64,000 nt of DNA from positions 249,242-313,241 of the forward strand of contig CAWINT010000011.1 in assembly GCA_963837515.1 (NCBI GenBank), in the 5' to 3' direction. The position numbers and the translations under genes are program-made. Below the pieces are notes generated by a model. That model was not told where the DNA came from. It ran no database searches and saw only the letters and a program-made list of their open reading frames with translations. Shown piece by piece: positions 1,857 to 18,775 of this stretch (position 1 is the first letter of the stretch; the number at the start of each line of letters is the position of its first letter). The DNA is from an uncultured Actinomycetes bacterium (GTDB lineage Bacteria; Actinomycetota; Actinomycetes; Streptosporangiales; Streptosporangiaceae).

Positions 1857-3050
1857 TCAGACGAAGAACGCCAGGAACTGGCCACTGTTGGCGGCTTGGC
1901 CGCCGGGGCCGCCGTTGGTGGCGGCCGGGGTGACCTCGACGTCGACCCAGTAGCACGGCGCGCTGGCAGCGGCGTAGGTGTCCGCCCAGGCGAAGGCGGT
2001 CCCCTGGTGGTAGGAGCCCTGGCCCGGGCTGGTGGCCTGGGCCAGGTTGGGGGCCGAGAGGGGGCCGACGGAGATGCCCTGGCCGCCGGCGCCGGTGGAC
2101 CAGTAGTCGATCGTGGCCAGGTTCCACATCTGCGGGCTGCTGGCCGAGTTGCATACCGCGACCTTGTAATCCCCGGCGGGCAGGGTGATCGTGCTGTAGG
2201 GACAGGACACCCAGCCGGTGCCGGCCGGCCCCGACCATCCGGGCGCGGCGTTCTCGGTCCCGCTGACCAGGGACTCCGAGGAGACCTGCCAGATCCCGCA
2301 GGAGGTGGGCAGCTGCGCTGCCCCGGCAGGGGAGTAGAACCAGATGCTGTCCAGCGTGCAGGGGGCGGACAGCTTGAACTCAGTGGCCAGCGTGAAGTTC
2401 AGGGCGCTGTCCTCGATGCCGTACAGCGGCACCGGCATGCCGGGCCACAAACGATACGACGACCCGTCCGGGGGAACGTCGCTCACCTGGACGTCCATCC
2501 AGAAGTTGGCCGACCCGGAACCCTGGTTCGGCATCGCCTCCGTGGGGTCGGCACTCGCCACGCCGAAGCAGCCCTGGGCCAGCCAGTTGTGCGGCACCGG
2601 GTTCGCGGCGTCGCTGTCGGAGTAGGCCTGCAGGGGCCCGTTGGTGATGCCCGCGCGGTAAAGGTCACCGCTGCCGAACTGGCCGCCGGAGTTCGGGAAC
2701 CCGTTCGTGGCGTGCCAGCCGGTCGCCGCGACGTATGCGATGGTCGGGGTCAATGCGATCGACCTGGGCAGCGGCACGTAGTTCCACTGCCCGGCGGTCA
2801 GCGAGCCCGACATGACGGCACCGCCGGGGACCAGGTTCCCGGCGTCGGTGTTGGTGACCTGCCAGAGCGCGAACTTCTGCGGCCCGGTGTCACCATCGGT
2901 GGGCACCCACCACCAGAATCCGTCGAACCAGCAGCCGTTGCTGGTGACCTGAAAGGCGAGTCCGGCCAGGAAATTGCCGGTGTAATGGGTCACGCCCGGG
3001 CCCAGCCCGGGACGTCCCGCAGCACCGTCCATCAGCCGGTAGACAGTCAA
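1857..3050 (-). CDS. Double DUF4082-like domain protein with no signal peptide (orphan paralog 1)
   Basis: 397-aa ORF. Two tandem modules fit the DUF4082-type pattern (LAGLAFQVTSNGCWFDGFWWWV...KFALWQV...GQWNYVPLP...AYVAATG, then TLATEFKLSAPCTLDSIWFY...CGIWQV...GWVSCPY...YKVAV). Paralogous to 3142..4335 and to the C-terminal 2/3 of 5520..7247. Confidence 0.65.
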   Translation of the reverse strand: MTVYRLMDGAAGRPGLGPGVTHYTGNFLAGLAFQVTSNGCWFDGFWWWVPTDGDTGPQKFALWQVTNTDAGNLVPGGAVMSGSLTAGQWNYVPLPRSIALTPTIAYVAATGWHATNGFPNSGGQFGSGDLYRAGITNGPLQAYSDSDAANPVPHNWLAQGCFGVASADPTEAMPNQGSGSANFWMDVQVSDVPPDGSSYRLWPGMPVPLYGIEDSALNFTLATEFKLSAPCTLDSIWFYSPAGAAQLPTSCGIWQVSSESLVSGTENAAPGWSGPAGTGWVSCPYSTITLPAGDYKVAVCNSASSPQMWNLATIDYWSTGAGGQGISVGPLSAPNLAQATSPGQGSYHQGTAFAWADTYAAASAPCYWVDVEVTPAATNGGPGGQAANSGQFLAFFV

Positions 3051-3125
3051 CTAGTCCCCCTCGATACAACCGGCGTGCGCGGCCAGGCCCTGGCCAGGGC
3101 CGCCGGTCCTGGCTCGGCCACCACC

Positions 3126-3145
3126 CTGAGCGGTCGGCCGCTCAG
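3126..3145 (-). terminator. Putative stem-loop overlapping the stop codon of the DUF4082 paralog 2 gene
   Basis: Perfect 8-bp stem CTGAGCGG / CCGCTCAG with a 4-nt loop. Stop codon (tca, 3142-3144) lies inside the 3' arm. Confidence 0.3.
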
Positions 3146-4335
3146 GGGAAGAAAGTCAGGAAGGCTCCTGAGTTGGCCGGTCCGGGCGGGGCCGCAGCCG
3201 CACCCGGCGTCACCTCCACGTCGATCCAGCGGGTCTCGCCATTGTCCTTGGTGTCGAACGTGTTCGGGTACGCGAACGATCCGTCCTGGTAGGTGGAGTT
3301 CCCGGTGACAACCGCGCCATTGCTGTTCGCGATCGCCGGGGCCGCGTTGGCGACGTTCGGCGAACTGAGCGGCCCGGCGGTGATCCCGCTGGCACCCGCC
3401 CCGGTGCCGAAATAGTCAACGAGTTCGGTATAGAACTGCTGGCCGCCGCCGTAGTACACCGAGACCCGGTAATCCCCGGCGGGCAGGGTTACCCCGCTGT
3501 ACGGGCACGCCACCCAGCCGCTGCCCGGTCCGCCCGACCAGGCCGGTGCCGTGCTGTCCGTGCCGGCCACCACCGCGTGCGTGGCCACATCCCAGATGGC
3601 GCACCGTGACGGCAGCACGGAAACCCCGGGCGGGGTGTAGAACCAGATGTTGTTCAGCGTGCAGGCCTGGGCCAGCTTGAACTCGGTCGCCGACGTCTGC
3701 TGCCCGGTGTCGATGCTCAGCACATTCGGGGGGGCCGGATAGTTCGGCCACAGCCGGTAGGACGAGCCGTCGGGGGCGGTGTCGCTGACCTGGACGTCCA
3801 TCCAGAAGTTGCTCGATCCCGACCCGTACGCGGGCATGACCGCGGCCGGATCAGTACCGGCCACGCTGAACGGGCCCTGGTCGATCGAGAATGGCGCGGG
3901 CAGCGTCCCGGACTGGTCGGAGTAGGCGCTCAGCGGGCCGTTGACGATCCCAGCGCTGTAAGCCTCGCCGCTGCCGAACTGGCTGCTGGTGTCCGGGAAA
4001 CCGCCACTGAACCCGGTCGCGGCCACGTAGCCGACACCAATGGTCAGCGGGATCGGGGCCGGCAGCGGCACGTGGTTCCATTGCCCGGCGGTCAGCGGGC
4101 CGGAGGTGACCGTGGCGCTGCCGATGAGCGTTCCGGTGCCGTTGGTATAGGGCTGCCAGAGGGCGAACTTCTGCGGCGCGGTGGACTGGCCGGTGTCACA
4201 GACCCACCACCAGTATCCGTCGAACCACACGCCGCCGGTGGTGACCTTGAAGGCCAGGCCGGCGATGAACGGGCCGTTGTAGGAAACGGCGCCGGATGGC
4301 CCGCTGATCCCGGAATACAGCCGGTATGTGGCCAT
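3142..4335 (-). CDS. Double DUF4082-like domain protein with no signal peptide (paralog 2), translationally coupled to the upstream Tat-signal protein
   Basis: ORF track 3142..4371. The preferred start is the second ATG at 4335 (MATYRLYSG..., which aligns with MTVYRLMDG of paralog 1). This ATG overlaps the TGA of the upstream gene as TGATG. Confidence 0.7.
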   Translation of the reverse strand: MATYRLYSGISGPSGAVSYNGPFIAGLAFKVTTGGVWFDGYWWWVCDTGQSTAPQKFALWQPYTNGTGTLIGSATVTSGPLTAGQWNHVPLPAPIPLTIGVGYVAATGFSGGFPDTSSQFGSGEAYSAGIVNGPLSAYSDQSGTLPAPFSIDQGPFSVAGTDPAAVMPAYGSGSSNFWMDVQVSDTAPDGSSYRLWPNYPAPPNVLSIDTGQQTSATEFKLAQACTLNNIWFYTPPGVSVLPSRCAIWDVATHAVVAGTDSTAPAWSGGPGSGWVACPYSGVTLPAGDYRVSVYYGGGQQFYTELVDYFGTGAGASGITAGPLSSPNVANAAPAIANSNGAVVTGNSTYQDGSFAYPNTFDTKDNGETRWIDVEVTPGAAAAPPGPANSGAFLTFFP

Positions 4336-4904
4336 CAGCTGAACCCGTTCACGAAGGCGGCCAGTAGCCACTTGCCCTTGGCCGCGTTATAGATGAAGCC
4401 GAGCAGATCGGTCTGGCCGGCTGCGGTGCTCAGCGTGGGCTGCGGCAGCCCAGTGGAGAACTCGTAACCGCTGTCCCAGGTGAGGGCGGACGATCCGCCC
4501 GAGCCCTGGGTGACCTGAAAGATGATCTGCTGCCCGTTGGCCGGGTTGGCCGGGGCGCCCATCGTCCGGTTCCCGGCTATGGTGACCCGGAAATCATTGC
4601 CGAGGGAAGCGTTGACCGCGATCGTCCCCCCGTCAGCCAGCCGGACCACGCTGGGGGCGACGGCGCCCGGCTCGACTGCCGTGCTGGCCCGGGCCGCCTG
4701 CTGCCCGGCCAGCCCGCGGGCCTGCTGGGCCAGCACCGCGCGCCGGGCCGCCAGCGCCGGAACGGCCGGGAACAGCAGGGATCCGCCCGCGGCTCCGGCC
4801 GCGGCCGCCATCCAGGCGGCGTACCTGAAGATCTTCCGCCGGCTCAGCGCCCAGCCGGAGGTCTGCCCGGGCCGGGCGGCCGCGCCTTGTGTGTCCACTG
4901 CCAC
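4335..4904 (-). CDS. Small Tat-signal secreted protein, homologous to the N-terminal domain of the 5520..7247 fusion
   Basis: 189 aa. Twin-arginine motif SRRKIF followed by a hydrophobic h-region and ALA. GTG start preceded by GGGGGAG. About 60% identical by eye to residues ~40-225 of the fused paralog (IAVNASLGNDFRVTIAGNRTMG.. vs IAVDASLGNDFRVTIGSDRTMG..). Confidence 0.65.
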   Translation of the reverse strand: MAVDTQGAAARPGQTSGWALSRRKIFRYAAWMAAAAGAAGGSLLFPAVPALAARRAVLAQQARGLAGQQAARASTAVEPGAVAPSVVRLADGGTIAVNASLGNDFRVTIAGNRTMGAPANPANGQQIIFQVTQGSGGSSALTWDSGYEFSTGLPQPTLSTAAGQTDLLGFIYNAAKGKWLLAAFVNGFS

Positions 4905-4914
4905 CTCCCCCGCC

Positions 4915-5454
4915 TCAGAAGTTTTTCCAGCCGGCGCACAGGCCAGCTTTCCGTGCGGCGGCGATGTCGTCCGCCGCCGAGCCGTGGTGGTAGATGCTCA
5001 GGTCATTGGGTGAGTAGCCCCACCGGCCCTTTACGTAGCTGAATACCTCCTCGGCGCGGCGGTGCCGGGCTGAGCCGGCCGTGGCGGCCTCCGTGACGAT
5101 GGCCGCAGTGCCGAAGACGGTCACGGCCTTGATGGTCCTGGCCGTGGACGCCACGGCGGCAGCCCGGCAGCCCTGGTGCACCGTTACCCAGAGGTGCTGT
5201 GGGATCTGCTGCTGCATGGCTGGGACCAGCAGCTCCCAGGATTCCGCGTAGTGGCCAGCTTGGTAGAGGCGGTCGAACCGCTGGGCCGCCATCCGGGCGC
5301 CGCCCTGCGCGTGTGGTTCCGCCGGGCCGGTCTGATCCGGAGCGGCCCGCGCGGTGGCCGACTCGGCCGCGGTGCCCTTCGCCGCGCCCGGGGCACCGCA
5401 GCCGACCAGGCCTGCGGCGACCAGGCCGGCCAGGAAGATCTTCGTGAACCGCAT
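4915..5454 (-). CDS. Lipoprotein of unknown function
   Basis: 179 aa. N-terminus MRFTKIFLAGLVAAGLVGCG has a signal peptide with an L-V-G-C lipobox. Confidence 0.6.
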   Translation of the reverse strand: MRFTKIFLAGLVAAGLVGCGAPGAAKGTAAESATARAAPDQTGPAEPHAQGGARMAAQRFDRLYQAGHYAESWELLVPAMQQQIPQHLWVTVHQGCRAAAVASTARTIKAVTVFGTAAIVTEAATAGSARHRRAEEVFSYVKGRWGYSPNDLSIYHHGSAADDIAAARKAGLCAGWKNF

Positions 5455-5519
5455 GGTGGCGGGAGTCCTTTCGGTGCGGCGCGGGCCGGCCGGGCGCGGG
5501 TGTACCGGCGACGGCAGGC

Positions 5520-7247
5520 TCAGGCCGGGGTGACCTCGGCGTCAACCCAGTAGTTCTCGCCGTTGTTGCTGGAGTAGCTCTGCGGGTAGGCCCACGAACC
5601 CTGGTGGTAAGTGCCCTGGCCCGGGCCGGTGGCAGCCGACGAACTGGGCGCGGTGATCGGCCCCGCGGTGATCCCGCTGGCACCGGTGCCGCCGTTGTTC
5701 CAGTAACCAACGGTGGCCTGGTACCACTCGGATCCGCCGCCGTAGTACACCGCGACCTTGTAGTCCCCGGCAGGCAGCGTGACGCCGCTGTAGCTGCACG
5801 ACACCCAGCCTGAGCCGGCTGCCCCCGACCACGACGGCGAGGTGTTGTCCGTGGCCGCGACCACGGTCTGGGAGCTGACATCCCAGATGGCGCACCGGGT
5901 GGGCAGGGCGCCCGCGCCGGACGCGGAGTAGAACCAGATCTTGCCCAGCTGGCAAGAGGCCGACAGCTGGAACTCGGTGGCCAGCGTGTAGCCCGTGGTG
6001 TCGGAATCAAGATGGCCCGGGAGCGTCGGGTAACTCGGCCACAACCGGTAGCTCGCTCCGGTTGGCGGGTTCGTGTCGACCTGGAGATCCATCCAGAAGT
6101 TGCAGGCGTTGGACCCGTAGATCGGCATGGACGCGGTGGGATCGGCGGTCGCGACGGTGAACACGCTTTGAGCGCCGTTGAACGGGGACGGCTTGGAACC
6201 GGACGCGTCGGAGTAGGCGGTCAGTGGGCCGTTGACGATCCCGGCGCTGTAGGCGCCACCGCTGCCGAACTGGTTGTTGGTGTCCGGGAAGCTGCCGTTG
6301 AACCCGGTCGCGGCCACATAGGTGGCCCCGACGGCCAGCGGTACCGGGGCCGGCAGCTGCACGAAGTTCCACTGCCCGGCGGTCAGGGCTCCCGAGGTGA
6401 AGGTGGCCGCGGCGACCAGCGACCCGCTGTAACCCGGCCCGTAGACGCCCCAGAGGGCGAACTTCTGCGCGGCCGTGGACTGGCCGCTGTCACACACCCA
6501 CCACCAGAAGCCATCGAGCCAGCAACCGCCCTCGGTCACGGTGAAGACGACGCCACAGGTGAAGGGGCCGGAGTAGGAAACCGGGCTGGACGGCCCGTTG
6601 GTTGACGGGAACAGCCGGTAGGTGCCCTTGGGCTGGGTGGCCACGGTCGCGCTGAAGCCGAGCACGTAGGCGGCCAGCAGCCACTTGCCCTTGTCCGCGT
6701 TATAGATGAAGGCGAGCAGGTCGGTCTGGCCGGCCTGGGTGCTCAGGATGGGCTGGGGCAGGCCGGTGCCAAAGGCGTAGCCGCTGCCCCAGGTGATCGT
6801 GGCCGAGCCGGCCGAGCCCTGGGTGATCTGGAAGGTGATCTTCTGCCCGTCGGTTGGGTTGGTGGGGTTCCCCATCGTGCGGTCGCTCCCGATGGTCACC
6901 CGGAAATCGTTGCCGAGAGAGGCGTCGACAGCGATCGTGCCGGCATCGGCCAGGGGCACCACCGCAGGCGCCAGCGCGCCCTGCTGGACGGTGGTGCCGG
7001 CGGCCGCGGCCTGCTGCCCGGCCAGGCCGCTGACCTGCCTCGCCGCCACTGCGGCCCGGGCCGGCTCGGCGGCGGCCTGCGAGAGCACCGATCCGCCCGC
7101 CGCGCCCAGAGCGGCCAGGCCGGCGGCTCGCTTGAAGATTCTCCGGCGGCTCAGCGCCTGCCCGGCGCCCGGCCCCTCCTGGCGCACCGAGGATTGCTTG
7201 CCCACTGCAGCCCCTCCCTCGCGGGGATGTGTAGTCCCCGTCTGCAT
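5520..7247 (-). CDS. Fusion protein: Tat-signal domain + double DUF4082-like domains (paralog 3)
   Basis: ORF track 5520..7508. Start trimmed to the ATG at 7247 (MQTGTTHPREGG...) because the longer form overlaps the upstream gene's 3' end (to 7339) and precedes the SRRRIFKRAAGLAALGAAG Tat motif by >120 aa. The junction ...LLAAYVLGFSATVATQPKGTYRLFPS joins the two modules that are separate genes at 4335. Confidence 0.7.
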   Translation of the reverse strand: MQTGTTHPREGGAAVGKQSSVRQEGPGAGQALSRRRIFKRAAGLAALGAAGGSVLSQAAAEPARAAVAARQVSGLAGQQAAAAGTTVQQGALAPAVVPLADAGTIAVDASLGNDFRVTIGSDRTMGNPTNPTDGQKITFQITQGSAGSATITWGSGYAFGTGLPQPILSTQAGQTDLLAFIYNADKGKWLLAAYVLGFSATVATQPKGTYRLFPSTNGPSSPVSYSGPFTCGVVFTVTEGGCWLDGFWWWVCDSGQSTAAQKFALWGVYGPGYSGSLVAAATFTSGALTAGQWNFVQLPAPVPLAVGATYVAATGFNGSFPDTNNQFGSGGAYSAGIVNGPLTAYSDASGSKPSPFNGAQSVFTVATADPTASMPIYGSNACNFWMDLQVDTNPPTGASYRLWPSYPTLPGHLDSDTTGYTLATEFQLSASCQLGKIWFYSASGAGALPTRCAIWDVSSQTVVAATDNTSPSWSGAAGSGWVSCSYSGVTLPAGDYKVAVYYGGGSEWYQATVGYWNNGGTGASGITAGPITAPSSSAATGPGQGTYHQGSWAYPQSYSSNNGENYWVDAEVTPA

Positions 7248-7338: not shown

Positions 7339-8616
7339 CTAGCGGGCGTTGCGCCCAGCCTGGGCCACAGACGGTGCGCGGGCCGGGAAGAGCAGCGCGG
7401 ACAGCAGGGCGAACTGGTCGTCCAGGCTGGCCACCTTGGCCGCGTTCCGCTCGGCCACCATCTGCTGGAGTTCGCTGCGGCGCTTCTCCAGTTCGGTGAA
7501 CCGCTCAATCAGCAGGTCGACGTCGAACGAGGAAGCGGACTCGGTGAAGTCGGCCAGGCCCATATCCGCCATCAGCGGGCCGAATTTGTCCGAATAGCCC
7601 AGCGCTATGGTCGGCTTGCCGAGCTTGAGCGCGCAGATCACGTTGTGGTAGCGAGTGGCCACCACGCTGCCGACCGGGGCCAGCGCCTGCATAAGTTCCG
7701 TGTAGGAGGCGCCGGGCTCGATAACGATCGATCCCGGGTCCAGATCGGGCCGGTGCCGCCGCACCTCCGCGCGGATCTGCTCCGCGACGCTGACGTCGAA
7801 CTTGGTGTCCCCGCCGAACAGCAGGACCTGGTGGCCGCTGTCGACCAGCCACTCGGTGAACCGGGTCAGCTTCTCGAGGTAGCCGGAATGTATCGCGGCC
7901 GCATTGCGCCGGTCGTCGTTTCCCCCGTAGTAGTCCATCACGCCGACGCCGACGGTCTGGGGGTCGCCGGCGTCATGAGGCGGTGTGGGAATGCCGAACG
8001 CGAGGTCGGGATAGACGCGGTCCCGGGAGGTGTCGATGCCCCGTCGCTGCATCGCCGCCCGTGAGTAGGCGTCGCGGTAGGACCGGTAATAGGCCAGCCG
8101 CGCGGTCCGGTTGGACAGCGCGCGGGTGGCCCGCTGCTTGATGTCGTTGGCTCCCACGCTGACGAACGCGACCTTGGTCCGGAACAGCCTCCCTGACGCG
8201 CTGAGCACGAACAGCGTGTACGGGAAACCCCAGGGCCGGGTGGGCAGCGTGGCCTCCAGCGCGCCCGCCCCCGGGACGAACACCACATCGTGCCGGCGTA
8301 CCCAGGACGCGATCCGGGCCGCGTCGAGGCCCTTCCCCAGAACCTTGAGGAACGGCGCCGTCACCCCGGAGGCCCGGTCCTCGAACCGCTGATACCAGTA
8401 CAGCGGGATGGCCGGGAGGCCGTAGCGCGCCTGCAGCCGCTCCGATCCCCCCGACATGGCGTCCAGGGCGGCCTCGGGGTGGGCGTCGCGGAGGTAGCGG
8501 AGCATGGTCTCCATCGAGACGTCGTTGCCGGAATTGCCCGAGCCAAGCAGGCCGAACAGGCCCACCCGGGCCGGGCTCGCGGCGGGTGCACCGCCGGCCG
8601 GATCACGAGGGCTCAT
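7339..8616 (-). CDS. Polysaccharide pyruvyl transferase family protein (WcaK/CsaB-like)
   Basis: 425 aa. N-terminal [25 protein letters not shown] resembles the G-x-x-G-x-x-N-x-G-D motif of the PS_pyruv_trans family. 4-nt overlap with the upstream gene. Confidence 0.65.
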
Positions 8617-9647
8617 GAGTTGTCCGTCCGGCGCAGCATCTCGTCGACCACACCGGCCGAGAGGAGTTCCTGGATCCGGCGCAGGCGCACGTAACGCGAG
8701 GACGTGAAGTCGTCGTAGCTCATGCCGTGCTCGGTGTAGGCGGAGACGAGTTCCGCCACCCCGTCCCGCACGGTCCAGCGCAGTTTCAGGTCCGGGAAGG
8801 TGTCGTTCAGCTTGGCGAAGTCCACCTGGTAGTTCCGCAGGTCTGGCCCGGCTCCCTCGGCGAACGACACCTTGGACCCGGGCACCGCGTCGCGGACCAG
8901 TTCGGCTACGTCCCGGATCTGCACGTTGTCCTCGGGACGCCCGACGTTGAACGCCTCGTTGTGCACCCGCTCGCGGGGGGCCTCGAGCACGGCGAGGAAC
9001 GCCCGGCAGATGTCCTCCACGTGGACCAGCGGCCGCCAGGGCGAACCGTCACTCTCCATGCGCACCTCGCCGGCCGTCATGGCGACGGCGGTGAGGTTGT
9101 TCACCACGATGTCCAGCCGCAGCCGCGGTGAGGCGCCGTACGCCGTGGCGTTACGCAGGTAGGTTGGGCTGAAGTCGTCGCCGGCCAGCAGCGCGAGCTC
9201 ACGCTCCGCCCTGACCTTGGTCTCGCCGTAGGGCGTTACCGGGAAAAGCTCGGCGTCCTCGGCCACCGCACTGGACCCGGCCGCGCCGTACAGGCTGCAC
9301 GAGGAGGCGAAGGCGAACCGGTCGATGCCTGCATCCCGGGCGGCCCGCGCCAGTTGCAGCGTGCCGTCCAGGTTCACCGAGTAGGTGGCCGCCGGGTTGA
9401 GGTGGCCGAGCGGGTCGTTGGACAGCGCGGCGAGGCAGGCCACCGCGTCGTAGCCGGCCAGGCCGGGGGCGGCTGCGTCCCGCATGTCGCGCGGCGGCCG
9501 GGCGCCGATGTCTTCCGGCCCGGGTCCGAGGTCACAGCCCTCGTACAGACCGAGATCCAGCCCGTCAACCTGGTGCCCGGCCGCGCGCAGGAAGGGGACA
9601 AGAATCGCCCCGATGTAACCACGATCACCCGCAACAAGGATCCGCAT
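8613..9647 (-). CDS. NAD-dependent sugar epimerase/dehydratase (SDR family)
   Basis: 344 aa. Rossmann motif [13 protein letters not shown] and a catalytic Y-x3-K (PYGETK). Confidence 0.8.
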
Positions 9648-9753
9648 CGCTTGTCCCCCAAGAGTCTGGCGCGAACCTGACGGCGTGGCGAGGCGGCTGC
9701 CTGCCTCTCAAATGATCCGCGACGGCCTGGTCCTGATACATCACCGGGCCGGT

Positions 9754-10866
9754 TCAGCCGCCGAGCCTGTCAGCGTCCACCCACCGGCCACCGGAGGCCT
9801 CGACGTCCGGATACGCATCCCGGACTTCTTTCAGCAGGTCAGAAACGAACAGCAGGACAGAATCCGGCTGGTGGACAGCAAGCTGCTCCGGGCTGGCGAC
9901 GGGGATGCCGGTGCCCGGCATCCGCAGGCCCTGCTTGGCGGGCGAGGCATCCAGCACCACGGGCAGCAGCGCGGCGTCCACGCCCGCCCGGCGCAGCAGG
10001 GCGACCGCGCGGGAGGCGGCACCGTAGCCGACGACGGCCCGCCCGGCCATGCGCTCGGACACGAGCCAGTCGTGGATCGCCTTGGCCCGGGCCTCGGTGT
10101 CGCGCTGGAGCCCGGCGAGCACCGCAGGATCAGTGACTCCGGCCCGGGCCTCACTGGCCATGAGCGCGGCCACCGAGCCATCGTCGGCGCGGCCCGGGCG
10201 GCCATCCCGGCTGGCGGCCAGCAGCACCGTGCCACCGTAGAGCTCGAACTGCCAGGCCTGCTGCGGGCTGAAGCCGAATCGGGCCAGCATGGCGGCCAGG
10301 GCCGGAGTGGAGTAATAGGCGTAGTGCCCGTGCCGCAGCGCGTTCCACTGCCCGTAGCGGGTGATCGTAGCCAGTGAGTGGTACTGCAGCAGCAGCACGC
10401 CCCCGGGGCTGACCCGGGCGGTCCGCTCCGCGAGGGCCGCGTGCTGGTCGGCGGAGTGCATCAGCCCGAAGCAGTCGAGCACCACTTCCGCGGGCTCCCC
10501 GTCGCGGACCGGGGTGAGCCCGCGGCCGGCCAGCAGGCCCAGCCAGGAGCCACCGTGGGGGCTGCCGTACTCGGCGACGCGCGCTCCGGCCGGGAGCAGG
10601 CTGTCGGCGGCGACCCGGGCGACCGCGTCGGCGGCCTGCGCGACGAGCGCGGCCGGCTCGGCACCCCGGGGCTCCTCGGGCACCGTTGGGTCGGCTACCA
10701 GCTGAGCCAGGCCGCACCCGGCGCACAGCCACATCTGCAGCGGGTAGACCGGGTCGGGGCCAGGGTCATCGCGGCGCGGGAAATAGTCGCAGGCCGGCTG
10801 GTCACCGAGGTCAAGCACCACCGTGCCGGTCCGGCCGCGGCAGAAGCGGCAGGCGTGCTCAGTCAT
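9754..10866 (-). CDS. NDP-hexose C-methyltransferase-like protein (TylC3 type; Zn-ribbon + SAM MT + C-MT C-terminal domain)
   Basis: 370 aa. N-terminal CRFC...CAGC four-Cys zinc ribbon followed by a methyltransferase core, the architecture typical of sugar 3-C-methyltransferases. Confidence 0.65.
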   Translation of the reverse strand: MTEHACRFCRGRTGTVVLDLGDQPACDYFPRRDDPGPDPVYPLQMWLCAGCGLAQLVADPTVPEEPRGAEPAALVAQAADAVARVAADSLLPAGARVAEYGSPHGGSWLGLLAGRGLTPVRDGEPAEVVLDCFGLMHSADQHAALAERTARVSPGGVLLLQYHSLATITRYGQWNALRHGHYAYYSTPALAAMLARFGFSPQQAWQFELYGGTVLLAASRDGRPGRADDGSVAALMASEARAGVTDPAVLAGLQRDTEARAKAIHDWLVSERMAGRAVVGYGAASRAVALLRRAGVDAALLPVVLDASPAKQGLRMPGTGIPVASPEQLAVHQPDSVLLFVSDLLKEVRDAYPDVEASGGRWVDADRLGG

Positions 10867-11566
10867 GGGCGCCCCGCGGCGAGCAGATGAAGAAATACTC
10901 CACAGCCAGGCGCGGGCTGATGCCGGGGACGTTCACGTTCAGGTGCATGTTGGCGGCCTTGACCAGGCCTCGCCGGGGCTGGCCACCGTGCCAGTTGTGT
11001 GCGGTGGGGAAGCACTTCTCGATGGTGAAGTAGCGGCTCAGGCTGTCGCGGAAGGCGGCAAGAGACTGGACGTTACTGAAGGCCTCGAATACATACTTGT
11101 CGCGGTGGCCGAAGTTCGTGTAGGTCACCACGAACCTGCCGCCCTCGTTCAGCAGGTGCGCGATCTCGGCGAACTTCGCAGTCTGGAAGTCGCCGACATA
11201 CTCGAACAATCCCTGCGCCACAACGATGTCGAACCGCCGGTCGCCGAACTTGATGGGCGCCTGCAGAATGTCGGCCTCCAGCAGGTTCGGTGCCGGGTCG
11301 TGGATGGCGATGTCAATCCCGTAGTAGTGGACGTTTTCCGGCAGCAGGCGCATCAGCGTGGCCGGCCCGCAGCCGAGGTCGAGCACGTCACACTCCCGGC
11401 CGCCGGCGATCCTGGTGACGATCCGGGCCGTCTTCTGCAGCCGGTAGTGCGGGGTGGCGTGCTTGCGGTTTTCCTTGATCCAGAAGTCTCTTTTGTACGC
11501 CTCCGCGATACTTCCAGCGGGTCCGCCAGCCATGCCTACCTGGTTGTCGGCCGGGTCATTCGCCAT
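10859..11566 (-). CDS. Class I SAM-dependent methyltransferase
   Basis: 235 aa. Motif I is DVLDLGCGPATL. 8-nt overlap with the downstream C-MT gene. Confidence 0.7.
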   Translation of the reverse strand: MANDPADNQVGMAGGPAGSIAEAYKRDFWIKENRKHATPHYRLQKTARIVTRIAGGRECDVLDLGCGPATLMRLLPENVHYYGIDIAIHDPAPNLLEADILQAPIKFGDRRFDIVVAQGLFEYVGDFQTAKFAEIAHLLNEGGRFVVTYTNFGHRDKYVFEAFSNVQSLAAFRDSLSRYFTIEKCFPTAHNWHGGQPRRGLVKAANMHLNVNVPGISPRLAVEYFFICSPRGAHD

Positions 11567-11572
11567 TTTTTC

Positions 11573-12512
11573 CTACGCTTTCCTCTCCCGGCCGGCCACG
11601 AGAGCGTCAACCGGGATGTCGGGGAGGGTTCCGGAGACGGGCCCGGCGGGCTGATCCACCCCTGGTCGGGCCCGGGTTGCCAGCCACTGCGCCAGGTAGC
11701 GGTAGCACTCACGCCGGTCGGCGCGAGTCAGCGGCGCCCGGCGGATCGCCGCGATGTAGCCCCAGATGTACTCGCCGTACAGCCGCACGCCTGGGTGCCG
11801 CCACCGGCTGGCCCGCCGCGGGTCCATGTTGACACACCGGCTGCGCATGGTGGGGCACGCACGCTCCGCCCGGTCGTCGTGATCGCGCCGGAAGTACAGC
11901 CAGTCCGGGACCTGGTAGAACGGTCCATGCAGGACAAGCTCAGCGATGATCGTGTGGTCGGCGTGGTGATAGCTGTCCTTCTTCGCCGCCCGGCGGAGGA
12001 CCTCGGTCCTCATGATCCCGTAGTCGTCGTCGCCGCCGCTGTCGAACAGGACGCTCCGGAAGCGTTCCGGCGCGTGCGGCGAGGTTGTGCTCAGCGGGTA
12101 CTCGAAGGCCTGCGTTACGTTCCCCCGGCCGTCGATGTAGGCCGTCCAGGAGTGCGCCAGCACGGCGTGCGGATGCTGGTCGAGTGCGGCGACGCACCGT
12201 TCGAGCAGATCGCGCGAGTACAGGTCGTCGCCCGCGGCCCACTTGAAGAGCTCGCCCCTGGCCTGGTCGGCGACGAAGTTGTGGTTCGGGGCGAGCCCGA
12301 TGTTCCGCGGCTGGCGGAAGTAGCGGATCCGCGCGTCCACCGACTGGTAGTGACGGCAGATGTCGGCGGTCCCGTCGGTCGAACGCGTTGTCCGAGATGA
12401 TCAGCTCGAAATCGGGGTAGCTCTGCCCGAGCAGGGCCTCGATCGCCTCGGCGAGGTATCTCTCGCTGTTGTAGATCGGCAGCCCCACGCTAAGTTTGGG
12501 CGGCGCGCTCAT
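11573..12512 (-). pseudogene. Family-2 glycosyltransferase interrupted by a +1 frameshift
   Basis: The N-terminal GT2 signature (SVGLPIYNSERYLAEAIEALLGQSYPDFELIISDNA) is in ORF 11940..12512. The rest (DARIRYFRQPRNIGLAPNHN...GDDLY) is in ORF 11573..12340 in another frame. Removing one A at 12382-12383 gives ...ISDNASTDGTADICRHYQSVDARIRYF..., a contiguous 312-aa GT2. Confidence 0.75.
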
Positions 12513-15844: not shown

Positions 15845-17803
15845 TCACGGCCGCGGCGGAGGGCTGGGCGATGGTGGCGAGGACAACGGCGCCCGGTGGT
15901 AACTGCTTCCGGAGTCCTGGCCGAACGGGCCGGTGCAGGCACCGCTCTGGCGGGCGCCAGCCGAGCTGCACCGGTCGCCAGCCGAAACCTTCCCGGTCCA
16001 CTGAGCCCAGCCCACCGGGTTCTTCCCGTTGCCCTGGTTCCAGGCGTAGAAAGTTGACGGGCCGTTGTAGACGTTGTCCGACCAGTTGTTGTGCTGGAAG
16101 AACGTGAGCTGGCTCAAGATCACCCAGCCGCCAGGGTGATTGTACGGATGGGCCACGCTGTACTCGGCGAACATGCCGCCGGCGCCGCAGGCGGGCCAAG
16201 CCGTTCGGTTGCAGTGCGGGACTGCGGCCGGGTCGAAATCGATGATGTTGTTGGTCACCTTTACGTTCGCCGTCCACCACAGGCAGCCATTCCACCAGTC
16301 CTCCGCGGGGGAACCGGTGCGATGCGGGGCGTACGTCGTTGTATCGATCGTGGCCGAGCGCAGGTTGGACTTGCAGGCGGGGATCGTGAACGGCCCGGAG
16401 GGGCCGCCGTTGGTGAGGGTGCAGGCGGCGTCGAAGCCGGCTGAGCAGAATCGGTCCGAGTTCTGCCACAACAGCACCGGCCCGCCGTTGTTCACCAGGG
16501 TGTTGCCGCTGATGACCGACTGGCGGGGATAGGAACCCTGCCGGGAGCACGACCGTTCCGGGCAGGCCGGAACTCCGCCGAAGGCCAGGTCGCTGCCGCT
16601 CTGGCTGACGTAAATGGCTGGTGTCGGGAACCCGGGGTTGTCCAGTCCCTCGGGCCAGCCGTTGTTGGCCAGGTAGTTGCCGGTGATGGAGAAGTTGTAG
16701 GAGATCTCTTCGGTGATCGCGGGCCCATCGTTATTCATGATCGTGTTACCGGCGTAGGTGGTGTTCGCGTTGTCCGTGTCGGTCCAGACGCCAGGGCCCC
16801 AGTTGTGGTGAATGTAATTTCCTTTGATGGTCACCCCATCGGTCTCCCAGAGCTTGAACCCCCCCTCATTGCCGTCCCCCACGACCTTGCCGCAGTGCGG
16901 ATTCCGGTATTGCGCAGGCACCGGGTTGTTCTTGGACCATCCGATCGCCCGGTTACTGAGCAGCCCCTCGAAGTCGCAGGTGTCGTTGTAGCTGATCTCG
17001 TTGTCTGCGACGGTGATGTTGTACGGACCACCGGTCAGCGAGTCGTGCCCCCAGGGTCCGGTCACCGACGACTGGAAGCCGTATTGGCCGTTCAGGGTCA
17101 TGCAATTGTGCTCGAGGACATTATCGGTGCTGGCGATCGCCCCGGCACCGGGTGCGTTGAGGGTGATCGTGTTGTACCGCAGGGTCCAGTCCGTGTTGGA
17201 ACTCTGGTTGATGGCCGCGGCATCGCCGTTGGGCTGAAACTTCTCGATGGTCAGGTACTCGATGATCACGCCCGGCTGGTTCCCGGATGAAAAGTTGGAG
17301 TCGATGGCCCAGGGATACCCTGAGTATTCTCCAGTGAGCACCGAGGGACGGCCGTGCCATAGTCCGCCGACAAAGACATCACCCTCATCGGCCTGGAACG
17401 CGCCGACGTGCGTGCCTGGCAGCAAATAATAAACGGTATGCGGGGCAAGCTGATAGGACATATAGCTATGCCGCCCAGCCGGGAGGACCACCCCGGCCGT
17501 CGCTTCCGGGAAATCCGAGCGGGGTGTGCCGAAGGTCGGCAGCCCGGGCCTGCCGCTGCGGTAGCGACCTGGACGGCCGTGGTAGTCGTACGGGGAGTCG
17601 AGGACTGCCTGCCCGCAGACTCTGGTGGACAGCGGGACGGAGACATCGGCGCTGTGCGTAGCTTTGGGCGACGGTTTGGGCGACAGTGGCGCCGGTCCGC
17701 TGGTGCAGCCGGCCAGGACCGCAACCGCGGCAAGAATCATGGCGAGCGCCCATCCGCCTACGGAGCGGGCCGCCGCCCGGGCAAGCTTCACGGTCATTGC
17801 CAT
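15845..17803 (-). CDS. Right-handed parallel beta-helix repeat lipoprotein (candidate glycan lyase/hydrolase/epimerase)
   Basis: ORF track 15845..17956. Start set to the ATG at 17803 (AAGGGG SD-like sequence upstream), giving MAMTVKLARAAARSVGGWALAMILAAVAVLAGC with an L-A-G-C lipobox. Repeated N-x-I/H-H-N beta-helix rungs (GNYIHHNWGPGVWTD..., GNTIMNNDGP..., GNYLANNGW..., GNTLVNNGGP...). Confidence 0.65.
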   Translation of the reverse strand: MAMTVKLARAAARSVGGWALAMILAAVAVLAGCTSGPAPLSPKPSPKATHSADVSVPLSTRVCGQAVLDSPYDYHGRPGRYRSGRPGLPTFGTPRSDFPEATAGVVLPAGRHSYMSYQLAPHTVYYLLPGTHVGAFQADEGDVFVGGLWHGRPSVLTGEYSGYPWAIDSNFSSGNQPGVIIEYLTIEKFQPNGDAAAINQSSNTDWTLRYNTITLNAPGAGAIASTDNVLEHNCMTLNGQYGFQSSVTGPWGHDSLTGGPYNITVADNEISYNDTCDFEGLLSNRAIGWSKNNPVPAQYRNPHCGKVVGDGNEGGFKLWETDGVTIKGNYIHHNWGPGVWTDTDNANTTYAGNTIMNNDGPAITEEISYNFSITGNYLANNGWPEGLDNPGFPTPAIYVSQSGSDLAFGGVPACPERSCSRQGSYPRQSVISGNTLVNNGGPVLLWQNSDRFCSAGFDAACTLTNGGPSGPFTIPACKSNLRSATIDTTTYAPHRTGSPAEDWWNGCLWWTANVKVTNNIIDFDPAAVPHCNRTAWPACGAGGMFAEYSVAHPYNHPGGWVILSQLTFFQHNNWSDNVYNGPSTFYAWNQGNGKNPVGWAQWTGKVSAGDRCSSAGARQSGACTGPFGQDSGSSYHRAPLSSPPSPSPPPRP

Positions 17804-17886
17804 CTGTCCCCTTTCCCGGGCGGGACGCGCTTTTCCCCGTGGCGGGACCCGCACCGGACGGTGAGCGGAGCTGACGCGTCCGCCGC

Positions 17887-18775
17887 CTACGGGGCCTGGC
17901 CGTTGCCGGTCACGGCGTGGTCCGCCCACGCGGCTCCAACGCCGTCCCCCGGCCACCAGTGGTCGAGCGGGCTCTCCCTGAAGAACAGGTAGTGGCGGCC
18001 GGTTCGCTCGGCCCAGTCGGAGAGCGCCGCCGAATCGTGGGCGTTGTCGGACAGCACGATCGCGCCGGGCCGCAGGCTGGCCTCAACCGCCTTCAGCTCG
18101 TTGCTCTCGTACTCGTAGGTGTGCAGGCTGTCGTGCAGGAAGATGTCCACGTCCCGCATCGCCGCCAGTGCGTCGAACGGAGCTGCCGGTGCGGCGGTCG
18201 ATGACGCGTGAATAGGGTTCGCCGATGAGGTGCCCGGCCGCTGGGTCGATGTCGATCGTGGTGAGCCGTCCGTGACCGTTACGGATGAGTGCGGCGGCTA
18301 TGACGCACGACCCGAGGCCGAGATGCGTACCCGTTTCGACGACGAGATCCGGCTGGGCAGCCCGGACGATGGCATACCAGCCGAACCGCCGGGCCCAGTG
18401 CGGTTCCGTGGCGCATATGTTCCGGCGCGGGTTGGATGCCAGCCGCCTGGTCAGGTGCTCGATGAGGTCTGTGTCGTGCTCCAGTTCCGTCCCCCACTCC
18501 CGCACCTGCCCGACCCCGGCCCCGGTGACCGTGGCGACGAACCAGCAGAGCTGGTCGCGGTTGAGCGGATCCAGGTCATAGGTGTAGTTCGTGGTTTCGC
18601 GGCTGTGCACGAGCCAGTTGAGCGAGCGCCCGATGACCCGGGCGTCGTAGCGTGCCACGGCCATGGTGCGCAACGGGAGAGCGGCGCCCCGGGCTACGGG
18701 CGAGGTCGCCAGGCGGCGCCGGATTCTGGTTTGCAGTGTCATGTATCCCCCCTCATCGGGACGGCCAGCCGTCAT
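17887..18775 (-). pseudogene. Class I SAM methyltransferase (Methyltransf_24/CmcI-like) interrupted by a frameshift
   Basis: The N-terminal part, with SAM motif LVVETGTHLGLGS...TTIDIDP, is in ORF 18083..18775. The conserved C-terminal part (DVDIFLHDSLHTYEYESNEL...) is in ORF 17887..18159 in another frame. That frame stays open upstream through ...STAAPAAPFDALAAM, so the frames switch within ~18160-18220. Confidence 0.6.

Follow-up and report, generated by a model that had tools for sequence, protein, structure and literature searches.

The 64,000-nucleotide (nt) stretch of DNA analysed here (the window; 70% G+C), from contig CAWINT010000011.1 of an uncultured Actinomycetes bacterium, has its closest relatives in metagenome-assembled genomes (MAGs) of uncultured soil Actinomycetes and Streptosporangiaceae. 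Near its left end lie the minus-strand genes E, D, C, B and A, named here in order of transcription. They combine a predicted twin-arginine translocation (Tat) signal, a domain of about 105 amino acids (aa) that we call N-dom, and a double DUF4082-like module (DUF4082x2) in three arrangements: fused in E, split between C and B, and orphaned in A. The cassette comprises the following features.

Gene E: 5520..7205, minus strand; 561 aa from the GTG at 7205; Tat-type signal, N-dom and two DUF4082-like beta-sandwich domains
N-dom of E: 6648..7007, minus strand; ~105 aa, seven-strand beta-sandwich
Double DUF4082-like module of E: 5523..6632, minus strand; an internal duplication whose halves end NFWMDxQV and NYWVDxEVT
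Gene D: 4915..5454, minus strand; 179-aa predicted lipoprotein, between E and C
Gene C: 4335..4904, minus strand; 189 aa; Tat-type signal, linker and N-dom (4694..4338), its end ...FVNGFS being the exact domain boundary
C-stop/B-start overlap TGATG: 4333..4337, minus strand; junction ...TTC AGC TGATG GCC (overlap at 4337..4333)
Gene B: 3142..4335, minus strand; 397 aa; signal-less double DUF4082-like module, then linker and tail
Gene A: 1857..3050, minus strand; 397 aa; orphan signal-less double DUF4082-like paralog, tail-bearing

The original prediction for this locus had described three paralogous double modules (fused, split and orphan), which is borne out here, with all four open reading frames on the minus strand; its gene set stands, except that it omitted gene D. 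It had placed the fusion at 5520..7247. The fusion holds, and its start is most likely the GTG at 7205, which is preceded by a Shine-Dalgarno sequence (GGGAGGGG) and gives the identical 561-aa product found in public gene calls, so that the ATG at 7247 is probably not the start. Gene A begins with a TTG preceded by the Shine-Dalgarno sequence GAGGGGGA and leaves no room for an upstream extension, 3050 being the first start codon to follow a stop. Proteins A and B start right at the domain boundary (MTVYRL and MATYRL, respectively) and a signal peptide is absent from both; A has, as had been proposed, neither a Tat partner nor a signal peptide of its own.

Fused, split and orphan forms

In a multiple alignment, C and the first ~200 residues of E share 67% identity, in agreement with the earlier view that the two are the same unit, and B and A are 60% and 53% identical to the remainder of E. 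The TGATG overlap between C and B is present and recurs in relatives: the two genes are split in 8/8 related genomes, where C ends ...NGF[SDG]-stop and the next gene opens M..YRL, the junction being TGATG in six and TAAATG in two. We then scanned metagenomes of the Joint Genome Institute with the N-dom alignment and classified every N-dom with a readable end. Across 78 loci, 33 instances are fused to a DUF4082x2 module, 53 are split with the module gene directly downstream, and 4 stand alone. The split point is constant (GF[SDG]-stop, then M..YRL), nearly always as TGATG, with TAATG or other variants making up the remainder. Homologues number in the hundreds for the fused form (more than 120 full-length orthologues) and likewise for the standalone form, for which the 120 proteins listed have a median length of 169 aa and end in FVNGF followed by S, D, G or A in 99 cases. 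With fused and split forms both abundant, the Rosetta-stone link that had been drawn from the small Tat protein to the DUF4082-like module holds.

The C/B split is ancient and precise, and the conserved 1-nt overlap fits coupled, equimolar synthesis of C and B. Since the split recurs in 8/8 genomes and 53 metagenome instances, the possibility raised earlier that the junction is an assembly error is refuted. Programmed frameshifting at the TGATG is likewise ruled out, as no X XXY YYZ slippery site is conserved ahead of the stop and two genomes have an in-frame TAA-ATG, where no frameshift could fuse the genes.

Tblastn mapping of the modules recovered the order pyruvyl transferase-E-D-C-B-A, whole or in part, in eight related genomes, with the full order in several MAGs; given this conserved gene order, the cassette is more than a chance association. 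The position of D between E and C is kept in L001, L002, L003, L005, L006, L008, L015/L016 and L076. Both signal-less genes are under purifying selection: the ratio of nonsynonymous to synonymous substitution rates, against two orthologous loci, is about 0.19 for B and 0.23-0.30 for A.

The N-terminal signals of E and C were located as follows.

Signal of E: 7053..7205, minus strand; n-region, SRRRIFK (7151..7131), h-region AAGLAALGAAGGSVL and c-region ...PARA/AV
Signal of C: SRRKIFR at 4844..4824, minus strand; ends ...PALA/AR (AAWMAAAAGAAGGSLLFPAVPALA/ARR)

By inspection, both share a long n-region, the motif S-R-R-[RK]-I-F-[KR], an h-region rich in Ala and Gly, and an AxA site with Arg after it. 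The twin-arginine (RR) motif is kept in 102/120 fused and 109/120 small homologues, most commonly as SRRKIF. Thus, of the claim that E and C carry a canonical Tat signal, motif and layout stand; the comparison with hidden Markov models (HMMs) was negative. TIGR01409 was not reported for the whole proteins (NCBIfam, E-value <= 0.1) or for their first ~50 residues (E-value <= 10), and Pfam returned no Tat-signal family, PF10518 included, on the whole proteins at E-value <= 0.1. Short N-terminal segments gave faint matches only, among them to N-terminal regions of the Tat-related TIGR02811 and TIGR01412 (E-value ~0.25-0.28). We therefore regard E and C as carrying predicted Tat signals, on the strength of the motif, its layout and its conservation rather than of a model or predictor.

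A tail-fibre tip domain and a C-terminal tail

N-dom, modelled by AlphaFold with a predicted local distance difference test score (pLDDT) of 85-95, corresponds to the precomputed Pfam family PF26209 and matches PHROG families of tail-fibre and tail-assembly proteins at their C-terminal ends (E-value 1e-5 to 1e-2). By tblastn, it is found in the last ~104 residues of Streptomyces phage Kromp gp21, a minor tail protein (40% identity over 97% of N-dom, E-value 5e-16), and in tail-fibre proteins of Caulobacter, Pseudomonas, Erwinia and Salmonella phages; a tblastn with the Kromp N-dom returned 3 records only. A profile built from the bacterial proteins recovered Kromp gp21 (1e-24), Jinkies gp36 (4e-10) and Charlie gp20 (3.6e-5; all at Z=1000). 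Foldseek against BFVD gave 240 matches at E-value <= 1e-3 (best 1e-10), the best of which cover N-dom only, over 108-134 columns at a root-mean-square deviation of 1.5-3 A (25-35% identical residues), and bear the annotation tail fiber or 'phage tail fibre C-terminal domain'. Against the PDB, matches are weak (E-value ~1e-3) and lie in spike or tailspike domains of phages. N-dom is thus homologous to the tip domain that ends phage tail fibres at their C-terminus, and it sits here directly behind an RR signal.

The second element of interest lies at the opposite end of the signal-less proteins, where B ends ...VEVTPGAAAAPPGPANSGAFLTFFP and A ends ...VEVTPAATNGGPGGQAANSGQFLAFFV.

Linker and tail of B: 3145..3204, minus strand; Pro/Ala linker GAAAAPPGPA and tail NSGAFLTFFP
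Tail of A: 1889..1860, minus strand; NSGQFLAFFV
Candidate tail peptide for N-dom docking: PANSGAFLTFFP
P0212: 8001-8573 in L015 and 4352-4924 in L016; E-D-C(tail) locus in another polysaccharide cluster

This tail is present in all eight B orthologues, in the A orthologues, and in 29 of the 32 readable downstream genes of split metagenome loci. Gene E itself ends ...EVTPA and has none, and the tail is absent from all 120 fused homologues listed; among all sequences collected, F[LM]xFF occurs in 0/150 complete N-dom-fused modules. It is also missing from P0292, where an RR signal is fused straight to the module. Tail and covalent N-dom fusion are mutually exclusive. Of 134 signal-less modules that begin at residue 1, the strict motif is found in 28, and many others have variant hydrophobic ends (LLMASFP, LLALFP and the like) or C-terminal extensions. 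The consensus of 69 distinct tails is P-x-[AVT]-N-[SP]-G-A-F-L-x-F-F-P-COOH. Ahead of it runs a linker of 12-39 residues (81% Pro/Ser/Ala/Thr), and the last 10 tail residues are nearly invariant; a variable linker with a fixed end is the signature of a putative tethered short linear motif. P0212, a 190-aa protein with 12 member sequences, has an RR signal, N-dom, a 12-residue linker and the tail NSAAFLSFFP, the DUF4082 module being missing.

Tail-bearing, signal-less pairs of A-like and B-like genes also occur amid housekeeping genes, in L009 (7899-9095, plus strand, and 9244-10401, minus strand; flanked by dprA/glmS-xerC) and in L010 (8761-9924, minus strand, and 10001-11185, plus strand; flanked by glnA/glnA2).

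The same arrangement of an N-dom followed by a tailed gene is found in phages, in proteins annotated 'hypothetical' or 'minor tail protein'. Kromp gp22 starts 1 nt past the stop of gp21 and encodes a 207-aa LamG-like protein ending ...VTPPAGNAKRAAFFALF (...AAFFALF). In mycobacteriophage Charlie, the minor tail protein gp20 has N-dom at residues 559-659 of 664, and the overlapping gp21 (TAGTG) ends ...APTPPIPANAGNFFAFF (...PANAGNFFAFF), of which 7/11 positions are identical to PANSGAFLTFF of B. The phage cargo is a LamG-like domain unrelated to DUF4082x2. Where this domain lies covalently inside a long tail protein, as in Ponzi gp58 and Hiyaa gp13, linker and tail are gone. Among 80 IMG/VR loci with LamG-like cargo, every short standalone gene with an aromatic or hydrophobic tail has N-dom immediately upstream, and no N-dom match was found in the ~70 tail-less loci. 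The tailed loci belong to cluster-N mycobacteriophages and to L172 (TGATG; ...AAFLAFL), L145 (...VGGFAPFL, 52% G+C) and L183 (...NSGSFFTHFF, 48% G+C). Two unrelated cargoes are thus tailed exactly when the upstream gene ends in N-dom and tail-less when fused, which is the strongest evidence here that N-dom and tail form a docking pair; judged from these sequence patterns, such a pair is likely.

A scan of IMG/VR for the exact B-type tail codons (GxFhxFFP-TGA) gave six matches, all of them chance short open reading frames. In Pseudomonas phage Epa19 (L186 2811-3059), an 82-aa gene lies 2 nt after an N-dom-ending fibre gene and ends ...PLRANFMILLAM (...ANFMILLAM), which may be a distant tail variant resembling the LLMASFP-type ends of the wider DUF4082x2 family. 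The tail-bearing LamG-like protein of L183 (~2640-3273) opens with a Sec-type-looking signal peptide (MKKILFTILMIVALLFPLGAFGA), which is odd for a virion protein.

Proposed docking and co-export, and competing explanations

We propose a model in which N-dom would be the acceptor for a plug of the form ...AN[SP]GAFLxFFP-COOH, carried on a flexible Pro/Ser/Ala/Thr tether. C (Tat signal and N-dom) and B (cargo and tail) would be made 1:1 by termination-reinitiation at the TGATG, would fold, and would then dock in the cytoplasm, tail on N-dom. The C-B complex would cross the membrane via Tat using the signal of C (hitchhiking). E would be the covalent version, in which the tail is not needed and none is present, and the free N-dom socket of E, or of C, could carry the orphan A. 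Outside the cell, the double beta-sandwich modules would most likely bind or process the glycan of the upstream operon, with lipoprotein D in the same compartment. As a whole, the reading that E-D-C-B-A encode an extracytoplasmic, lectin-like set, assembled via a docking pair that was inherited from phage tail fibres or is shared with them, has in our estimate a probability of roughly 50%. The export of B, and perhaps A, by Tat hitchhiking we would put close to an even chance, if anything slightly under it.

For FAD-glucose dehydrogenase and PaoABC (PMC6719666, PMC4273604), it is established that a small subunit with a Tat signal carries partners lacking one. The C-B pair resembles these in that C has an RR signal and B none, they are encoded side by side (in 8/8 genomes and in 53 instances from metagenomes), and a pre-assembled folded complex is proposed to be exported; C is also a small protein, as is the gamma subunit of FAD-glucose dehydrogenase, for which carrying the partner is the main known job. 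In contrast, all established hitchhikers are cofactor-containing redox enzymes with extensive subunit interfaces, whereas the cassette has no cofactor signature, and its proposed cargo is a lectin-like beta-sandwich pair. The proposed interface would be a tethered C-terminal peptide in a phage-type domain, and fused, split and orphan versions coexist within one operon.

The Kromp gp21/gp22 and Charlie gp20/gp21 pairs share with the cassette an N-dom homologous to the C-terminal domain of tail proteins, a next gene at or 1 nt from the stop, a tethered aromatic tail, and fused versions that are tail-less. They differ in that the bacterial N-dom comes at the N-terminus, after an RR signal, and not at the end of a fibre shaft, and in that its cargo is DUF4082x2 instead of LamG-like and is encoded on the chromosome, in a polysaccharide cluster with a lipoprotein. 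Phage tail-fibre/Tfa or gp37/gp38 pairs offer a more general analogy. In function only, the proposed pair also resembles cohesin and dockerin: a small docking element on the cargo, an acceptor on a secreted or anchored scaffold, and several possible cargoes, including ones encoded elsewhere. There is no relationship in sequence or fold, however. A dockerin is a Ca-binding domain with a fold of its own, and the subunits of a cellulosome each carry a Sec signal; the plug proposed here is a ~10-residue peptide, and the cargo is signal-less.

Several observations weigh against this model. The curated Tat HMMs give no score to the signals of E and C. The N-dom-ending fibres of Jinkies, S2B and MEP301 have no tail-bearing neighbour, and the phage counts represent few independent lineages. 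No N-dom was found within 8-10 kb of the tail-bearing pairs of L009 and L010, for which a partner elsewhere in the genome is possible. Most members of the wider DUF4082x2 family are signal-less, with the module starting at residue 1; being signal-less is therefore the family default, and a missing signal alone is no sign of hitchhiking. Some DUF4082x2 members are phage-encoded. Finally, the tail of P0212 sits on an already exported protein, so that the tail may act after export, and AlphaFold2 places it in a short helix (pLDDT ~60) with no confident docking on N-dom.

The last of these points leads to an alternative that we consider unlikely, in which the tail is an anchoring or assembly motif used after export (binding D, the membrane or cell-wall glycan, or mediating head-to-tail assembly) and B and A leave the cell by other means. 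P0212, which has the tail and a Tat signal of its own but lacks a DUF4082 module, and lies in an E-D-C(tail) locus, would fit this, as would the conservation of D within the cassette and the absent dock in the AlphaFold2 model. On the other hand, the same tail is found on phage virion-associated proteins encoded after N-dom-ending tail proteins, where envelope sorting would be senseless, and A and B show no visible alternative export signal. The tail, with 5-6 hydrophobic residues, is too short to span a membrane.

The prevalence of signal-less family members instead raises the idea that B and A stay in the cytoplasm, or get out only through lysis, with no use of Tat at any time; the fused and split forms would then reflect shuffling of a phage-derived module, with no co-export involved. 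On ~160-kb phage-like contigs, homologues sharing 53-57% identity with A lie beside GH25 endolysins, and orphan chromosomal pairs exist without a nearby Tat partner. This account appears improbable: the paralog E and the variant P0292 have the same module behind an RR signal, the C/B overlap is kept in more than 50 loci, a lipoprotein lies in the cassette with surface-polysaccharide genes ahead of it, and tail and covalent signal exclude each other.

Very improbable is a prophage or tailocin remnant, that is, a set of tail-fibre genes with no part in cellular secretion. The homology of N-dom to fibre tips and the module homologues in phage-like contigs are what one would expect of it, but not the RR signal peptides, the lipoprotein, or a neighbourhood of polysaccharide genes and an esterase with no other phage structural or lysis genes adjoining. 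Moreover, synteny of the cassette with the pyruvyl transferase spans several genomes at 52-83% protein identity, and the DUF4082x2 proteins matched no PHROG family and, by tblastn, no cultured phage. Lastly, that C and B are one protein, through assembly error, programmed frameshifting or readthrough, has a negligible chance, even with the B frame (-1 relative to C) open for 12 codons upstream and at least one apparent 1-nt frameshift elsewhere in the window, because the break recurs at all 53 split metagenome junctions from differing samples and assemblers as well as in the related genomes, and because split copies are tailed and fused ones are not, which marks them as distinct evolved forms.

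Returning to the docking model, if correct, it would extend Tat hitchhiking from cofactor-bearing redox enzymes to lectin-like surface proteins, and would supply a short tag that predicts secretion of signal-less proteins, filling a gap in secretome prediction for Actinomycetota. It would also describe a peptide/domain pair by which phages appear to attach exchangeable distal modules to their tail fibres, of help in understanding host-range modularity and of use as an engineering part (a small tag and a 105-aa acceptor). For the DUF4082 subfamily it would be a first functional handle, tying it to a locus for a cell-surface glycan, pyruvylated or methylated, in soil actinobacteria that are abundant and uncultured. 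A bolder generalisation, which we think doubtful, is that tail and tip domain form a portable plug-and-socket from which phages hang interchangeable distal adhesins, co-opted by soil Actinomycetota as a Tat piggy-back tag. The N-dom of C or E might then serve to export any signal-less tailed protein, including the L009 and L010 pairs, and such proteins would belong to a new, sequence-predictable class of non-redox Tat hitchhikers.

The double module and the surrounding genes

The module had been described as a double domain, and comparison of its two halves by hhalign agrees (probability 94%, E-value 1e-7, 134 columns, 30% identity); Pfam reports two DUF4082 stretches in A. The assignment to DUF4082 (PF13313) itself holds in part. 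A and B pass the gathering cut-off of 28.4 bits marginally, with 33.0 and 30.5 bits; E has no local Pfam match, and its cluster representative P0001 and many orthologues have PF13313 in precomputed tables. Relative to the Pfam family, the proteins here make up a separate subfamily, marked by the tandem duplication, by a particular N-terminal start (MxxYRL) and by the C-terminal tail. A full-text literature search turned up DUF4082 in two papers only, and in the title or abstract of neither, and E matched no sequence of a solved structure at E-value <= 1. Foldseek of the whole E model against the PDB found generic tandem beta-sandwiches only (PHM, CBM32, XepA and the N-terminus of CBA120 TSP4), with TM-scores below 0.25, and hence nothing specific on the module.

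An exhaustive search recovered 673 representatives of the wider DUF4082x2 family, with diverse C-terminal extensions; IMG/VR gave one partial match. Two representatives, P0241 and P0243 (988-1399 aa), consist of several tandem DUF4082x2 modules without a signal and end LLVLFP and LLALFP. In L012 (10001-11545) and L013 (10001-11233), the homologues 53-57% identical to A lie near an endolysin and have no FLxFF tail, and no N-dom gene was found within 10 kb of them; the contigs, of ~160 kb, have the phage hallmarks GH25 endolysin, phrog_240, Prim-Pol/D5 and an FtsK-like protein.

We infer from fold class and context that these W-rich tandem beta-sandwich modules may bind, and possibly process, a glycan outside the cell, because they are accompanied by surface-glycan genes and a lipoprotein and have phage relatives on tail fibres or beside endolysins. 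Lipoprotein D opens with MRFTKIFLAGLVAAGLVGC... and has, by inspection, the lipobox MRFTKIFLAGLVAAGLVG-C (LVGC); its match to DUF4019 (NTF2-like) is weak and below the cut-off. D could be an anchor or a chaperone, and together with the conserved RR motif it points to an extracytoplasmic cassette. Surface-glycan genes precede the cassette in most loci, and in the window they are the following.

Polysaccharide genes: 7339..12512, minus strand; directly upstream of E and co-directional; pyruvyl transferase, NAD epimerase, C-methyltransferase, methyltransferase and a (frameshifted) GT2

The GT2 gene (11573-12512, minus strand) has an apparent 1-nt frameshift at ~12340-12385, directly after ...ELIISDNA, the N-terminal part (from 12512) being in a different frame from the remainder (STDGTADICRHYQSVDARIRYF...). 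It is either a pseudogene or the product of an indel error in the assembly. At the other side of the cassette, a large plus-strand protein (1-1830, open to the window edge) converges on gene A and carries a C-terminal esterase domain (PF00756) behind ~180-aa repeated units (DDFNRADGSLGANW...), of which L001 and L002 have additional tandem copies. These repeats look LamG-like, and no homology was found between this protein and the phage LamG-like cargo. Further into the polysaccharide cluster, a minus-strand gene (15845-17956) encodes a right-handed beta-helix protein of 703 aa (PF13229/NosD-like), which may act on the same polymer as a glycan lyase or hydrolase.

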